From an uncultured delta proteobacterium (GTDB lineage: Bacteria > Desulfobacterota > RBG-13-43-22): DNA of 64,000 nucleotides. A program made the translations under genes and the position numbers. Shown here one piece after another: positions 572 to 10,016 of this stretch; position 1 is the stretch's first letter, and each line of letters opens with the position of its first letter. The notes beneath the pieces are model-generated. The model did not search any database. It was given only the letters and a program-made list of their open reading frames with translations, and had not been told where the DNA came from. The stretch spans positions 320,001 to 384,000 of the forward strand of contig CAWBOS010000013.1 of NCBI GenBank assembly GCA_963790475.1. Reading direction: 5' to 3'.

Positions 572-611
572 ATACTTTTCCAAGGCTTTCAAAATTTTCC
601 GGAAAAAAGTT

Positions 612-660
612 GAGGAGTCTCAGGAACTTTTAAAGTCACAATTTGTGACTTGAAAAGAGG
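612..660 (+). repeat. Orphan ORF6N-type palindrome or gene remnant
   Basis: AAGTCACAA-T-TTGTGACTT (633-651), extending to 627-657 with one mismatch. It translates as EESQELLKSQFVT*, similar to [13 protein letters not shown] of the ORF at 2056. Confidence 0.6.
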
Positions 661-726
661 AGAACTGTTTAAGGTTACTAAAGATAGGGTCTCAACTGAA
701 TGAAATAAACAATAAGGGGAAAATAG

Positions 727-1275
727 ATGGAATCTTTGGTTCCGACGGAAGTTATTGAGAGCAGAATCTTATTGATTCGAAGGCAGAAGGTCATGCTGGA
801 TTCCGACTTGGCGGAGCTTTATGGGGTAACAACGAAAAGACTGAATGAACAAGTTAAGCGGAATCGTGGTCGTTTTCCTGAGGCTTTTATGTTTCAACTG
901 AACTCCGAGGAAAAAGCCCAGGTGGTCGCAAATTGCGACCACCTGGCCAAGCTTAAGTTTTCGGCCACCCTCCCTTATGCTTTCACTGAACATGGGGCTC
1001 TCATGGTTGCCAGTATACTTAATACCCCCCGAGCTATTGAAATTAGTATCTTCGTCGTGAAAGCCTTCGTTAAACTCCGGGAGATGATCTCCACCAATAA
1101 AGATTTAGCCCGGCGGTTGGATGATCTGGAGAAAAAATATGACGGCCAATTCCAAGTGGTCTTCGAGGCTATCCGGGCCCTAATGGCTCCGCCGGTTAAG
1201 CCTAAACGAAAAATCGGCTTTGATCTGAAGGAGAAGCAGGCCGGATATGGCAGGAGGGGAACGAGAAAAAAATAA
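727..1275 (+). CDS. ORF6N-domain DNA-binding protein (paralogue 1)
   Basis: Motifs RQKVMLDSDLAELYGV..K.LNEQVKRN..RFP..FMFQL, PYAFTEHG and C-terminal KRKIGF. Confidence 0.88.
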   Translation: MESLVPTEVIESRILLIRRQKVMLDSDLAELYGVTTKRLNEQVKRNRGRFPEAFMFQLNSEEKAQVVANCDHLAKLKFSATLPYAFTEHGALMVASILNTPRAIEISIFVVKAFVKLREMISTNKDLARRLDDLEKKYDGQFQVVFEAIRALMAPPVKPKRKIGFDLKEKQAGYGRRGTRKK

Positions 1276-1313
1276 GGTGCTAATTTTCATCAATTTCACC
1301 ATGATCTGGCAAT

Positions 1314-1385
1314 GTCATTCCAGACTCGATTCGGAATCCAGTATGTGAATCCACCCAAGGAAGGATGCTTCAACCGGAGCAATGA
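1314..1385. repeat. REP/RPE-like palindromic element, degenerate
   Basis: GTCATTCC-AGACTCGATTC-GGAATCCAG has the same architecture as the element at 34325-34422. Confidence 0.5.
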
Positions 1386-1424
1386 AAATTGGAATTCGAT
1401 ATCTTGAAAGGAGAAATGAACACT

Positions 1425-2045
1425 ATGGGAAAGGTGGTAAAGGGTAAACGGAAGGGAGCTGTTCCAAAAGCAAGACCAAAGGTAAAAAAAGATGAAAACC
1501 AGGACAGGGTTTACCAGCTCAGGATATCACTCATCGGCAGCAAGCCGGAGATTTGGAGACGAATCCTGGTCTCGGGCAATACCACCTTGGCCAAGCTTCA
1601 CGGAATCATACAGATACTCATCGGTTGGGAGGATGACCATCTCCATGAATTTGTTATTGCCGGGGTGCATTACACTATGCCTTTGCCTGATGATCTGGTC
1701 CCGTCTCAGGATGAAAAACGATTTCGTCTTTATGAGGTAGCCGCTAAGGAAGGCCTGAAATTCCTCTACACCTATGACTTTGGTGATGACTGGGAGCATG
1801 AGATCATGGTCGATAAAATCCTGGAAGAAGACAAACGGTTCGTTGGAAAGCCTGTCTGCATAGGGGGTGAGAATGCCGGCCCTCCCGAGGATATCGGCGG
1901 CATATTAGGCTACCTTGAAACGTTGAAAGCCATCAAGAATCCCCGCCATCCGGAACACGAGGAGTTGAAGGAATGGCTCGGGGAGTTCGATCCCAAGGCT
2001 TTTGATATCGATTTGGTAAACCGAATTCTGTCGAGAATGAGATGA
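1425..2045 (+). CDS. Plasmid pRiA4b ORF-3 family protein
   Basis: Motifs [21 protein letters not shown]...GW...[16 protein letters not shown] and GPPEDIGG. Start moved to ATG 1425 downstream of GGAG. Confidence 0.88.
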
Positions 2046-2055
2046 GGAGGTTTTA

Positions 2056-2610
2056 ATGAAAGAATCCGATATGGCACCTGCTGAGATTGTCGCAAAAAAA
2101 ATATTCCTTATCCGCGGGCAGAGAGTCCTGTTAAGCTCCTCCTTAGCGGAACTGTACGGGGTTGAACCGCGGGTGTTGATGCAGGCCGTAAAAAGAAATC
2201 TTGATCGGTTTCCTTCGGATTTCATGTTTCAATTATCCATAGAAGAGTTCCAAAACTTGAAATCACAGATTGTGATTTCAAGTTGGGGCGGATTGCGCCG
2301 GGCAAGACCTTATGCATTCACTGAACAAGGGGTGGCTATGTTATCCAGTGTCCTTAACAGTCCAAGGGCTATTAAGGTTAACATTACGATCATGCGCGTT
2401 TTTGTCCGGCTTCGCCAAATGATGGCCTCCCAAAGGGCCCTGTCCGGCAAGCTGGCCGAATTGGAAGAACGCATCCAGGATCACGATGAACAAATTACAG
2501 ACATTTTTAAAGCCATACGTCAGCTCATGGCACCGCCACTGAAACCCAAACGAAAAATCGGCTTTGATCTGAAGCAGAAACAGGCGAGGTATGGAAAAAA
2601 GAAAGGGTGA
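2056..2610 (+). CDS. ORF6N-domain DNA-binding protein (paralogue 2)
   Basis: Motifs IRGQRVLL...[43 protein letters not shown] and KRKIGF. GAGGAGG RBS. Confidence 0.88.
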
Positions 2611-2856: not shown

Positions 2857-5208
2857 ATGAGATTTATCGCAAGATTTAATGAATCTGGTGGAGAACAGAC
2901 CCTCGTCAATCATCTGACCGGAGTCAGCACGAAAATTCACGTTTTGACCGACAATGATTTTTTCGGCGAGATTACTGGAATGCTTCATGACATAGGTAAG
3001 TACTCGGTCGCGTTTCAAGAACACGTTCGATCCAATTCGGAGGAGAATAAACCAGACCATTCGTCTGCCGGAGCGCAATTGCTTCTAAGCCTATTAAAAA
3101 AGCGAGCTGAGGAAATTGGTGAAGAAGAAATTAAACGGATTGCCCCGCTAATGGGACGCATGATTGCCCATTGCGTTGCAGGGCACCATTCGGGGCTGTT
3201 AAATGGATCTTCGGTTGGAGATGAAACCTCTTTAGAACGCCGGCTGACCAAGATATTGGAGCCGTATCTAAGTAATATCGAGCCGGACATTTCGCAAAGA
3301 TTAGATTCAATGGTCAATTCACTTTTGTCTGAAGAAAACCTCGATTATGTCTGTCGTTGGATTGATTCTGACGGTAATGTATCCGGGCGAGATGCATATT
3401 CGCTGCAATTCGCCATCAGAATTCTTTTCAGCGCTCTCGTTGATGCAGACCGACTCGATTCAGAGCAGGCCGGGAACCCCGACCAGTGGAAGATGCGTAT
3501 GTCGATAAAGAAAGATACGTTCCCTGTCTTGCTGAAAAAGATCGAAGATCATTTGAGCACACTTCCCTCGAATGGGACTGTGAACAAGGTGCGCAGAGAA
3601 GTCTCAGAGCAGTGCAAGGACGCTGCATCGGTGGAGCCGGGTTTTTTTGATTTAACCGTTCCAACAGGAGGGGGCAAAACATTTGCCAGTCTGCGATTCG
3701 CCCTTCACCATGCAATTAAACATGGGATGCGCAGGGTCATATATGTAATGCCCTACACAACCATTATTGATCAAAATGCGGATGAGTTCCGGAAGGTATT
3801 AGATCGAGACAAAGCTAGCATCAACGTACTTGAACACCATAGCAACATGGAACCTGAAAAGGAAACTCAAGAAAGTGAATTACTGACTGACAATTGGGAT
3901 AGCCCGGTTGTTGTAACCACGAGTGTACAATTCTTTGAGTCTTTCTATGCGGCCAAGTCAAGCCGATGCAGACGGCTGAATGCTATCAGGCAGGCAGTAA
4001 TTATTCTTGATGAGGCCCAGACAGTCCCTGTGCGCTACTTGAAGGCCGTAACTTGGGCGCTGGAAGAGCTTGTCACCAATCACAGTTGTTCAGTTGTCTT
4101 CTGTACGGCGACACAGCCGTTGCTGGACTCAAAACGTCTGGACGGAGAGGCACTGGATAATCATAGGATCGGTGTTACGAACGTCCGGCCAATAATTACA
4201 GAGCCTCAGAAATATTTTGTTGGACTGAGCCGTGTCAGGGTCCGTTCGGTTGATTCCAAGGAACCTCTCTGCGTCTCTGATATTGCGGCTATGGTAATGG
4301 AAAAGGCACAGGCAAGGAAAAGCGTACTATGCGTTCTTAATACAAAGAGCAATGCCAAGGCAATCTTCAAAGAAATGAACAATGGGACTGTTGTGAACAG
4401 ACTCTGGCACCTTTCAACTGGTATGTGTCCCCAGCATCGGAAAGATGTAATCGAGATTGTCAGATTGCTAACGGCCTATTCCCGCAAAACAGGAACGAAA
4501 GCTCCTATTGTGATCAGCACGCAACTTGTTGAGGCTGGAGTGAACCTCGATTTTGACGTTGTATTCCGAGCTATGGCAGGAATCGATTCTATTGCGCAGG
4601 CGGCAGGGCGGTGTAATCGCGAAGGCAGCATGCCTGCCCTTGGGGAAGTCTATTATTTCAGGGCGGAAGAGGATCTTCGCCACCTCCGAGATATCGCTGA
4701 AGCAAAACGTATAGGAATCGATACCCTTTCTGCCCTTGAGGGCAATACCGCGCTTACACAGGCCGAGAAAGATCCCATCGGTCTCATGGCGGTAGAGGAG
4801 TACTTTCAGAGGCTATACTGGAGCCAAGCTTCCGAGATGGATGAAAAAGGGATTGTTGCCCGTCTCACGTCACCGCGAAGAATAGAGGAGAGTGCCTATG
4901 TGCCTTTTACCACTATTGCCGATGACTTTCGATTCATAGAGAATGACACAGTCTCAATTCTGGTGCCCTATGGCCAGGTAGGGAAGTCGTTGTGTGACAA
5001 GCTAATCAAGGGCGGAATGTTGGGGTTTGATGAATACAAGACGGCAGGCAGATACTCTGTACAGGTATTCAGAGACACGTTGCCAAAGTTTAAACCACTT
5101 GTTTCCCCAACGAAAAGCAGCTGGCTTGTGCTGGCAGACAGTAAACATTACAACGAAACGGGCCTTCTTGGGCCAAATGAACTTTCAGTGGAGGACTATA
5201 TAGTATGA
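2857..5208 (+). CDS. cas3: CRISPR-associated HD nuclease/helicase Cas3
   Basis: Motifs HDIGK, GHHSGL, LVDADRLD, PTGGGKT, LEHHS, ILDEAQ, TATQP, STQLVEAGV and QAAGRCNR. Confidence 0.96.
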   Translation: MRFIARFNESGGEQTLVNHLTGVSTKIHVLTDNDFFGEITGMLHDIGKYSVAFQEHVRSNSEENKPDHSSAGAQLLLSLLKKRAEEIGEEEIKRIAPLMGRMIAHCVAGHHSGLLNGSSVGDETSLERRLTKILEPYLSNIEPDISQRLDSMVNSLLSEENLDYVCRWIDSDGNVSGRDAYSLQFAIRILFSALVDADRLDSEQAGNPDQWKMRMSIKKDTFPVLLKKIEDHLSTLPSNGTVNKVRREVSEQCKDAASVEPGFFDLTVPTGGGKTFASLRFALHHAIKHGMRRVIYVMPYTTIIDQNADEFRKVLDRDKASINVLEHHSNMEPEKETQESELLTDNWDSPVVVTTSVQFFESFYAAKSSRCRRLNAIRQAVIILDEAQTVPVRYLKAVTWALEELVTNHSCSVVFCTATQPLLDSKRLDGEALDNHRIGVTNVRPIITEPQKYFVGLSRVRVRSVDSKEPLCVSDIAAMVMEKAQARKSVLCVLNTKSNAKAIFKEMNNGTVVNRLWHLSTGMCPQHRKDVIEIVRLLTAYSRKTGTKAPIVISTQLVEAGVNLDFDVVFRAMAGIDSIAQAAGRCNREGSMPALGEVYYFRAEEDLRHLRDIAEAKRIGIDTLSALEGNTALTQAEKDPIGLMAVEEYFQRLYWSQASEMDEKGIVARLTSPRRIEESAYVPFTTIADDFRFIENDTVSILVPYGQVGKSLCDKLIKGGMLGFDEYKTAGRYSVQVFRDTLPKFKPLVSPTKSSWLVLADSKHYNETGLLGPNELSVEDYIV

Positions 5209-9082: not shown

Positions 9083-9198
9083 TGCAGATGAACGCCACCC
9101 CACCCTATCACCCCCCCCACGGCGGCTATCAGAACTCACAGTCCTACCAGATGGCCGAGATTGTTTATAAGGAGATCAGGGAATGGAAACAAACATAG
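9082..9198 (+). pseudogene. 38-aa mini-ORF, remnant of a four-helix-bundle gene N-terminus
   Basis: MQMNATPPYHPPHGGYQNSQSYQMAEIVYKEIREWKQT matches PPHGGYQDLQSYQMSEIAY of 10026-10613. It starts in a TGATG overlap with the cas7 stop. Confidence 0.7.
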
Positions 9199-10016
9199 CC
9201 GTTTTTAGAGGTAAGGAAATCAGGAAGACGCTTCATAAGAATGAATGGTGGTTTTCCGTTTCCGATGTGGTTGCCGCGTTAACGGATAGCGCAGATCCAA
9301 AGCAATATATAAAGAAAATGAGACAGCGCGATCCGGAACTTAGCTCCTACTGGGGTACAATTTGTACCCCCCTTGAAATTACTGCCCTAGACGGAAAAAT
9401 GAGGGAGACAAATTGTGCCAATACCGAAGGTATCTTCCGAATTATTCAGTCCATCCCCTCCCCCAAGGCGGAGCCTTTCAAACGCTGGCTGGCCAAGGTG
9501 GGCTATGAGCGGGTGCAGGAAATAGAAGACCCGGAACTGGGGACTAAGAGGACCCGGGCCTTATACAAGGCCAAGGGCTATTCTGATGACTGGATCGAGA
9601 AACGGATGCGGGGTATTGCCATCCGGGAAGAGCTTACGGATGAGTGGAAAAAGAGGGAAGTGGGGCAAGAAAAAGAATACGCCATCCTGACCTCTGAGAT
9701 CGCTAAGGCCGCTTTCGGAGTAACACCGGGAGAACATAAGAAAATAAAGGGACTAAAACGGGAGAATCTCAGAGACCACATGAATGATCTCGAATTGATT
9801 TTCTCCATGTTAGGTGAAGCGGCCACGACGGAGATAACACGGGTTGATGATGCCAAAGGATTTCAGGAAAGCAAGCGAGCCGCCCGCAAGGGCGGGGGGG
9901 TGGCCGGGAAGGCCAGAGAAGACCTGGAGCGAAAAACCCTTAAAAAAGTAGTTTCATCAGAGAACTATCTGAGTATTCCGCAGAAAAGACAAAAGCAGTT
10001 AAAAGAAAAGGGATAA
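9183..10016 (+). CDS. BRO-N domain protein (antirepressor-like)
   Basis: Motifs F.GKEIRK...NEWWFSVSDVVAALTDS, RIIQSIPSPKAEPFKRWLAKVGYER and NLRDHMNDLELIF.MLGE. Confidence 0.88.
   Translation: METNIAVFRGKEIRKTLHKNEWWFSVSDVVAALTDSADPKQYIKKMRQRDPELSSYWGTICTPLEITALDGKMRETNCANTEGIFRIIQSIPSPKAEPFKRWLAKVGYERVQEIEDPELGTKRTRALYKAKGYSDDWIEKRMRGIAIREELTDEWKKREVGQEKEYAILTSEIAKAAFGVTPGEHKKIKGLKRENLRDHMNDLELIFSMLGEAATTEITRVDDAKGFQESKRAARKGGGVAGKAREDLERKTLKKVVSSENYLSIPQKRQKQLKEKG

Follow-up and report, generated by a model that had tools for sequence, protein, structure and literature searches.

Palindromes within ORF6N genes are conserved as DNA and are probable binding sites of the proteins that these genes encode

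A stretch of 64,000 nucleotides from an uncultured delta proteobacterium (assembly GCA_963790475.1, contig CAWBOS010000013.1, positions 320,001 to 384,000; hereafter the window) carries two paralogous genes of the ORF6N family, gene 1 and gene 2, each with a perfect inverted repeat inside its coding sequence. We found that such an embedded palindrome is a family-wide feature with relatives in many phyla, that it is conserved at the level of DNA through compensating changes in its arms, and that a residue of the predicted recognition helix, encoded outside the palindrome, is linked to a base within it. Each ORF6N gene therefore probably contains the cognate site to which its own protein binds as a dimer, and the two paralogues in the window would form mutually orthogonal pairs of protein and site. 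From these patterns we infer that the ORF6N protein physically binds the palindrome and dimerises.

The palindromes of gene 1 (P1) and gene 2 (P2) have the sequences given in a preliminary description of this DNA. The arms of P1 (918-931 and 933-946) and of P2 (2254-2267 and 2271-2284) are each 14 nucleotides long and 100% complementary, with one and three nucleotides between them, respectively. As that description also noted, the two are read in different frames: a check of the codons places the centre of P1 32 nucleotides and that of P2 34 nucleotides past the Leu codon of the FMFQL motif, and P1 is translated as ..QVVANCDHL... The further claim that the arms differ completely was incorrect, since P1 and P2 agree at six of 14 positions (2, 3, 5, 6, 10 and 13, counted from the centre), and these common positions belong to the core of the family. 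A third palindrome, P0, upstream of gene 1, had been overlooked (arms 627-641 and 643-657, 15 nucleotides, 93%). P1, P2 and P0 are the only three pairs with non-overlapping arms of at least 14 nucleotides among the longest 25 of the 31 inverted repeats in the window.

A chance origin of the window palindromes is excluded. When the codons of each window gene were shuffled synonymously, none of 1000 shuffles reached an arm of 14 base pairs (maximum 12, mean about 6). The same comparison was extended to 75 genes, comprising 73 from genome loci and the two window genes, for the segment between FMFQL and the PYAFTE motif. The longest perfect arm in this segment averages 10.23 base pairs, compared with 4.74 after synonymous shuffling and 6.05 elsewhere in the same genes. 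It is at least 10 base pairs long in 41 of the 75 genes, and in 39 no shuffle out of 200 matched the observed arm. Palindromes at this place are thus far above the codon-shuffled expectation that the preliminary description had named as a control. The complete genome sequence of 6.34 Mb contains 68 perfect palindromes with arms of at least 12 nucleotides and a loop of at most 5, seven of which are of the ORF6N type.

Homologues were sampled from 80 species-genome loci, with gene 2 as the query, and from 80 metagenome loci, with gene 1 as the query, and were pooled into an alignment of 136 distinct proteins. At least 10 of 12 arm positions are paired in 133 of the 136 genes, and all 12 are paired in 56. 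By the position of the palindrome centre the pooled set contains 112 genes of frame A, to which gene 2 belongs, and 21 of frame B, to which gene 1 belongs. In 72 frame-A genes with the centre fixed at +34, positions 1-13 form Watson-Crick pairs at 78-100%, with two or three types of pair occurring at positions 4, 5, 7, 8, 10 and 13, and the consensus is AACTTGARRTCACAA-W-TTGTGAYYTCAAGTT. Changes in one arm are compensated in the other by synonymous and non-synonymous substitutions alike (K/I AAA..ATT, K/T AAG..ACT, R/T AGG..ACC, R/I AGA..ATC). Compensated changes also affect the core, which occurs as TCACAA/TTGTGA (encoding SQxV), TCGCAA/TTGCGA (SQxA) and TTCCAA/TTGGAA (FQxG). Arm covariation, another check proposed for this DNA, is therefore present across homologues, and it is preserved even where the encoded amino acids are altered.

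The frame-B subfamily makes up 20 of the 56 genes from metagenome loci; its members have the centre at +32 and arms of 12 base pairs that are 90-100% paired. Both frames share the core TCRCAA-W-TTGYGA. At positions 1-8 they have one and the same DNA sequence (RRTCRCAA), although it encodes SQ[IF]V in one frame and V[AT]NCD in the other, and positions 9-12 differ by frame, TTGA versus AGGT. Variants within frame B alter the amino acids of both arms together, for example VANCDH versus VPIWHQ. The segment that holds the palindrome is 25 residues long in both frames, and the palindrome is part of the ancestral domain rather than an insertion. On quickly built trees the frame state changes 11-13 times and frame B does not form one clean clade, which may reflect either poor tree resolution or exchange of modules.

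Both window proteins are confidently assigned to ORF6N, which we take to be a family of the KilA-N type. They match Pfam PF10543 well above its curated cut-off of 27.8 bits (gene 1: E 1.3e-30, 105.9 bits, model positions 2-86 of 86; gene 2: E 8.2e-33, 113 bits, positions 1-86 of 86). They also match PDC-S05, a family of candidate single-gene defences in PADLOC (PDLC04856; E 4e-54 and 2.6e-55, respectively) and PHROG families annotated as 'anti-repressor'. AlphaFold2 (AF2) models were obtained with mean predicted local distance difference test scores (pLDDT) of 87.9 for gene 1 and 86.1 for gene 2. In the model of gene 2 the palindrome segment forms the end of helix 62-71 and a low-confidence loop; in that of gene 1 it forms a confident extra helix, 71-78. 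The models thus place the palindrome in a structurally tolerant surface segment of the domain, and this tolerance would explain how the symmetry of the DNA can take priority over the peptide, and how either of two reading frames can be accommodated. Within the N-terminal domain, gene 1 and gene 2 have diverged most in the recognition helix (40% amino acid identity) and in the palindrome segment (32%), with 61-69% identity in the motifs on either side.

Mutual information was calculated between the palindrome bases and every column of the 136-protein alignment. The base at position 4 varies among the genes (A in 64, G in 39, C in 29) and is predicted by alignment column 60, which corresponds to Q43 of gene 2. 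Q is found with A in 64 genes, E with G in 37, and R or K with C in 27, so that 128 of 132 genes obey the rule and four are exceptions; the mutual information is 1.31 of 1.51 bits. Column 60 lies outside the residues encoded by the palindrome (67-77 in gene 2 numbering). Among the other columns outside the palindrome, 57 (1.10 bits, corrected) and 61 (0.51 bits) rank next, both of them in the same helix, and all remaining ones, including those between helix and palindrome, are at or below 0.31 bits. Position 7 in turn tracks column 56, with K accompanying G in 73 genes and other residues accompanying A. The position 4 rule applies to 108 of 111 genes in frame A and to 20 of 21 in frame B. Because it is valid in both frames despite the different amino acids encoded there, it argues against a mere contact within the protein. 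The combinations of Q with A:T, E with G:C, and R or K with C:G would make chemical sense for a residue that recognises the base of one strand.

The rules were then applied to 80 viral loci outside the set from which they had been derived, which yielded 27 distinct genes. The base at position 4 was predicted correctly in all 27 (23 Q-A, one E-G and three R/K-C), and the position 7 rule was correct in all 15 symmetric cases, the other 12 being asymmetric. For a phylogenetic test, a tree was calculated with IQ-TREE from 149 columns, leaving out the helix and palindrome columns. On supported branches, independent pairs gave 6.9 of 7 for A with Q, 4.9 of 6 for G with E, and 6.8 of 7 for C with R or K, with none in the opposite direction; a tree from FastTree agreed. 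Position 4 and the helix residue undergo 36-40 changes on the IQ-TREE gene tree, and over all these trees the changes of position 4 number 36-41.

The two genes of the window conform to these rules. Their specificity positions, alignment columns 56, 57 and 60, are K37, R38 and E41 in gene 1 and R39, V40 and Q43 in gene 2. The helix of gene 1 predicts G at positions 4 and 7, as is found in its site (..GGTCGCAA..), and that of gene 2 predicts A at both positions, as is found in its own (..AATCACAG..). Since each site fits the helix of its own gene, the products of gene 1 and gene 2 should not cross-react. The proposal in the preliminary description that each gene carries its own operator for self-recognition has thereby gained strong, if indirect, support from a helix residue that lies outside the palindrome codons and predicts a palindrome base.

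A plausible mechanism can be drawn from these observations. The ORF6N protein has a helix-turn-helix (HTH) followed by a long helix, and is presumably a dimer. The exposed face of HTH helix 2 (R39, V40, Q43 and A44 in gene 2; K37, R38, E41 and Q42 in gene 1) would contact positions 4-8 of each half-site. In the AF2 models these residues (39, 40, 43 and 44 in gene 2) lie on one face of this helix, and the conserved L41 and V45 face the core. With contacts at positions 4-8, the two helices would be separated by one turn of the DNA, the spacing found in classical HTH dimers. The E and K of gene 1 would be paired with ..GGTCGCAA.. and the Q and R of gene 2 with ..AATCACAG.., and the two combinations would not be interchangeable. 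Because the site lies about 75 nucleotides from the helix codons, the specificity of the protein and its site would be inherited together.

Several features indicate that the palindrome is maintained as duplex DNA. Mismatches in frame A (positions 1-15) comprise 33 G:T, 34 A:C and 65 others, compared with 948 pairs, and so show no excess of wobble. The centre base in frame A is A in 57 genes, T in 54 and C in one. Such near-equality is expected for a dyad in duplex DNA, where the two forms are the same site turned round, and it explains why the peptide alternates between I and F in frame A and between N and I in frame B. Pairing in frame A extends to the centre (100% at position 3, 93% at position 2 and 78% at position 1). 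We conclude that the conserved signal is DNA-like rather than RNA-like, and probably not a hairpin. The view put forward in the preliminary description, that symmetry of DNA or RNA and not the amino acid sequence is maintained, is accordingly upheld for DNA, by the shuffles, the compensating pairs and the presence of one core in two frames, and is not upheld for RNA.

It is extremely unlikely that the palindrome acts as an mRNA hairpin regulating translation or mRNA stability. It is transcribed within the coding sequence, and the few mismatches at positions 1-12 in frame B are G:T in four cases and A:C in none, which would suit an RNA helix. However, G:T is not favoured over A:C in frame A, A and T are equally frequent at the centre, and non-coding and relic copies keep their symmetry. 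An Rfam search (E up to 1) returned no relevant match, and the sense strand has neither a terminator nor a U-tract past the hairpin. An intrinsic terminator or a structured RNA family was rejected on these last two grounds. The only terminator-like signal is on the antisense strand of P1 (918-946, minus strand), which is followed by GCTTTTTCC and scores as an intrinsic terminator because of A-rich 'EEK' codons that are typical of the frame-B subfamily.

As single-stranded DNA the palindromes form stable folds (P1 -16.9, P2 -13.7 and P0 -10.1 kcal/mol, with none of 200 shuffles as stable). Together with arms that are perfect over 12-17 base pairs and pairing that is kept while the sequence changes, this could point to a DNA hairpin or cruciform recognised by other machinery, such as that of replication or transfer or a structure-specific nuclease, instead of a duplex site for the ORF6N protein. 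We consider this unlikely. Pairing continues up to the centre, which in a hairpin would be an unpaired loop; conservation across frames extends to the core sequence itself; such a scheme has no room for a helix residue that is linked to a base; and no constant partner gene accompanies the family, whose neighbours vary by locus. A hairpin-templated mechanism of diversification, which the preliminary description had raised, is likewise unsupported, as variation between genes tracks the protein helix. In contigs from four metagenome runs, most of which derive from other organisms, none of the variants listed falls inside the arms, which is a weak hint in the same direction, and the depth of coverage by these contigs peaks at the bins of both palindromes.

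A very doubtful alternative is that the symmetry is a functionless by-product of template-switch repair, which would copy one arm onto the other and cause their concerted evolution. Template switching at quasi-palindromes is an established mutational process. It would agree with the bimodal distribution of arm lengths, which are either perfect or short, and with P0, a relic that keeps 14 of 15 pairs and a compensated pair despite its decayed flanks. Such a process leaves unexplained, however, how a distant helix residue predicts a base, what conserves the core in different phyla and in both frames, and why codon usage is overridden at synonymous sites in 133 of 136 genes.

The palindrome might also be a point of recombination or cassette exchange at which ORF6N genes or gene halves are swapped, inserted or deleted. 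A recombination or insertion site had been among the explanations offered earlier, and it found faint support in two observations. Relics are trimmed around the palindrome (P0, and pieces of pseudogenes in loci L010, L021 and L025), and in five ORF6N genes (in L030, L035, L036, L045 and L146) the segment carries an additional palindromic unit that keeps the frame; the extra unit of L045 resembles an intergenic copy upstream of that gene. The mosaic nature of the locus at the genus level and the many changes of position 4 and the helix residue on the gene tree would fit as well. As the sole explanation this is quite improbable, because no recombinase is constantly linked to the family and a centre of one nucleotide is a misfit for the core sites of tyrosine and serine recombinases. 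It could nevertheless hold alongside a role as a binding site.

The 13-mer core occurs seven times in the 6.34 Mb genome (control, zero), and six of the seven are in or beside ORF6N genes or their relics. The genome has six intact ORF6N genes, each with a different site (five of them scored twice and the sixth, C6:22918, once). An intergenic palindrome at C12:903788-903814, about 155 nucleotides before a gene for an ImmA-like protein and an adjoining ORF6N gene, is the same as the internal site of the ORF6N gene C6:22918-23454 except for the centre base, and this identity may indicate cross-regulation between paralogues or a relic. Both places belong to paralogous pairs in which a gene for an ImmA-like protein (259 amino acids, HEAGH motif) is followed by an ORF6N gene (C12:903788-905389 and C6:22918-24468). 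Separately, two identical perfect palindromes of 30 base pairs are located 47.7 kb apart at C13:271040-271069 and C13:318731-318760, the latter 1.27 kb before the window and just before a weakly matching rve/HTH transposase-like open reading frame (ORF).

P0 is a relic. In two congeneric genomes, ORF6N genes of another subtype have an internal palindrome region to which the interval 611-661 of the window is 87-88% identical, as alignment confirmed; outside this interval the parent gene is decayed or deleted. Position 8 of P0 is a compensated A:T pair where both relatives have G:C. By the helix rule P0 would fit a protein with Q and K, such as the paralogue at C12:904841, and not that of gene 1. 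A scan for consensus promoters found none overlapping P0.

Extra copies are found upstream of ORF6N genes more generally, with 21 hits among 135 genes at -200 to -20, compared with 1 of 121 in a control interval at -400 to -220 and 3 of 120 downstream. We considered whether these are cognate autoregulatory operators, and this was not supported: only 10 of 18 fit the helix rule of the neighbouring gene, where about seven were estimated by chance, and the P0 relic does not fit gene 1. The upstream copies may represent relics, or sites for sister proteins, or a combination of the two.

The poor fit of the upstream copies is one of several points that weigh against embedded cognate sites. The held-out set is dominated by one class, Q-A, which accounts for 23 of its 27 genes. 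Helix and palindrome, being about 75 nucleotides apart, may form a linked module that is passed on or exchanged as a unit, so that the tree test may count transfers of the module and not co-evolution that occurred repeatedly; when the tree was restricted to the N-terminal domain (65 columns), it had too few supported branches and yielded only one or two supported pairs. Perfect symmetry as frequent as that seen here (56 of 136 genes over 12 base pairs) is unusual for ordinary operators, and there may be an additional structure-forming role or a contribution of template-switch repair. Finally, fold comparisons gave only weak matches of the winged-helix type, namely Mbp1/APSES (Z 4.6), Dachshund (Z 5.8) and baculovirus Orf22 (Z 6.2); nothing in the wide fold search scored above Z 6.2, and Foldseek against the PDB gave no match at E 0.001 or better.

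If the palindrome is a site for the protein of its own gene, two functions can be guessed at. Our first choice is a portable negative autoregulation, or a 'parking' of the protein on its own gene, which would travel with this frequently transferred gene of defence islands and fit its repeated entry into foreign transcription units. The second is a self-marker resembling the aba element of the phage-defence protein BstA. By this analogy, the palindrome would be an identity tag by which a defence protein tells self DNA from that of an invader, and mutually orthogonal pairs would accumulate in genomes, the present one having six that differ. We regard such a tag as a tentative possibility. The conserved entity would then be the DNA site rather than the peptide, and the two frames would give rise to two local protein structures.

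Similar palindromes were observed in two further gene families. The RhuM genes in our phylum sample (loci L271-L300) have 9-12 of 12 pairs at a fixed place in 25 of 26 cases, and in 24 of the genes the centre is 55 or 46 nucleotides before a YNLD motif. Their outer arms are conserved (CAACTGT..ACAGTTG) and their inner arms covary. A truncated RhuM-like gene in the same genome as the window contains a perfect internal palindrome with arms of 12 base pairs (C1:105672-105696). In the window, a Bro-N gene (9183-10016; Pfam E 1.2e-13) is situated between cas7 and cas4 of the type I-C cas operon, and has a near-palindrome at 9349-9373, ACTGGGGTACAA-T-TTGTACCCCCCT, with 10 of 12 pairs, nine of them in a perfect run, that encodes YWGTICTPL. 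The RhuM palindromes are the same phenomenon in a second family of defence islands, and the principle of an embedded site appears to extend to RhuM and Bro-N genes.

The features of the ORF6N locus are given in Table 1. The locus is flanked by housekeeping genes and an rve-like ORF on one side and by type I-C CRISPR-Cas on the other, and a genus-level comparison shows it to be a cassette mosaic that lacks a syntenic counterpart. The PRiA4_ORF3-family gene, for which PADLOC and PHROG gave no match, is treated here as context.

Table 1. Coordinates of the ORF6N genes, their palindromes and associated features in the window
Feature	Positions	Strand	Remarks
Relic of a third ORF6N gene (SRSQFVTLKKGQ subtype)	575-700	+	Stops and indels; only the palindrome neighbourhood is recognisable
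P0	627-657		CTTTTAAAGTCACAA-T-TTGTGACTTGAAAAG; 14/15 pairs; centre 85 nucleotides before the gene 1 ATG
ORF6N gene 1	727-1275	+	182 amino acids; frame-B subfamily (contains EEKAQVVANCDHLAKLKFS)
Gene 1 recognition-helix codons	832-861	+	Residues 36-45, TKRLNEQVKR; helix H36-45 in the AF2 model
P1	918-946		CCAGGTGGTCGCAA-A-TTGCGACCACCTGG; perfect; codons A64-A74; centre is the middle base of the N69 codon
PRiA4_ORF3-family gene	1389-2045	+	Between the two ORF6N genes; Pfam PF07929, E 8.6e-63
ORF6N gene 2	2056-2610	+	184 amino acids; frame-A subfamily
Gene 2 recognition-helix codons	2167-2196	+	Residues 38-47; helix H38-47 in the AF2 model
P2	2254-2284		AACTTGAAATCACA-GAT-TGTGATTTCAAGTT; perfect; codons N67-W77

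Three other features of the locus were observed. The 3' ends of the ORF6N genes (1190-1250 and 2530-2590 in the window, and those at many further loci) are unusually similar in DNA among paralogues. Gene 1 and gene 2 have an identical run of 27 nucleotides in common there, and the C-terminal tail is 68% identical in DNA, versus 37% for the helix; this likeness may reflect a conserved peptide motif or a recombination handle. Between gene 2 and the intact cas3 gene (2857-5208) is a stop-broken N-terminal piece (HD region) of a second cas3 (2607-2786), which had no Pfam match and looks like a seam left by gene replacement. Lastly, two direct 20-mers (tgtccacgatgtc[a/g]tggcat) occur 27 nucleotides apart at 120-180, just past the end of an upstream ORF; they presumably resemble the repeated binding sites found at a transposon end.

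If each ORF6N gene does embed the site of its own protein, this widespread family would supply, in large numbers, natural combinations of a recognition helix with its matching operator, and some of the recognition code (Q-A, E-G, R/K-C) would be legible from sequence alone, with relevance to HTH specificity and to the construction of orthogonal repressors. The palindromes would also show clearly how a non-coding code can override a coding one, with synonymous sites frozen, amino acids dictated by DNA symmetry, and one site tolerated in either frame. Moreover, they would offer a first mechanistic handle on genes of the PDC-S05 type, which are abundant in defence islands and without a known mechanism, and a self/non-self logic like that of aba would become directly testable.

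Binding sites inside coding sequences have long been known, for example the lac operator O2 in lacZ and the gal operator OI in galE, as have sites inside the gene of the binding protein itself, such as parS in parB/spo0J and the lambda ori iterons in gene O. In all of these a binding site is superimposed on codons, and in the latter two, as is proposed here for ORF6N, the codons are those of the protein that binds it. However, we know of none of these sites that is family-wide at one codon position, covaries with a recognition helix or is read in two frames. Roi of phage HK022, a phage protein of the Bro-N/ANT type, reportedly also binds within its own gene. That case differs in involving another domain family and a single phage gene, for which no family-wide covariation is known. 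In our literature searches, no published description of the ORF6N palindrome was found.

Repetitive extragenic palindromes and their hairpin-forming doublets (REP/REPIN), elements resembling miniature inverted-repeat transposable elements (MITE) and in-frame elements of the Rickettsia type are likewise short palindromes that occur in frame and have some dispersed non-coding copies. A mobile element of the REP/MITE type was nevertheless ruled out, as the seven core copies in the genome, six of them linked to ORF6N, are not dispersed genome-wide; no linked transposase was found. What is expected of the operator of an HTH dimer, a dyad-symmetric site that tracks the residues of the recognition helix, was observed (128/132, in both frames, and 27/27 held-out genes).

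For PDC-S05 itself, a representative with a Virulence_RhuM domain is described as reducing plating in E. coli B about 1000-fold for the phages T7 and T5 (10.1101/2024.09.26.614923). The representative tested against phages carried RhuM and not ORF6N, and the passages of that report on PDC-S05 mention no embedded palindrome.

The closest analogy is perhaps with BstA. In the passages on this system, BstA is a prophage-borne phage-defence protein of the abortive-infection type that has a KilA-N-like N-terminal DNA-binding domain and a second domain, and aba is a self-immunity DNA element of 63 base pairs that comprises a promoter-proximal region and the first 34 base pairs of the bstA gene, with terminal direct repeats CCCGCC (PMC8585504). 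BstA homologues each have their own cognate aba element (PMC8585504). As far as those passages go, the two systems are alike in having a short DNA element that overlaps the gene of a DNA-binding protein and is, or in the case of ORF6N probably is, cognate for each homologue. In contrast to aba, which is at the start of the gene and for which the same passages mention no palindrome (PMC8585504), the ORF6N element is a palindrome of 25-35 base pairs in the middle of the domain, 190-230 nucleotides inside the gene. In addition, the ORF6N genes are chromosomal and beside CRISPR-Cas rather than prophage-borne. Compared with all of these systems, the ORF6N palindromes are distinctive in their fixed codon position across phyla, the precedence of DNA symmetry over the peptide, their reading in two frames, and a readable link between helix residue and base.

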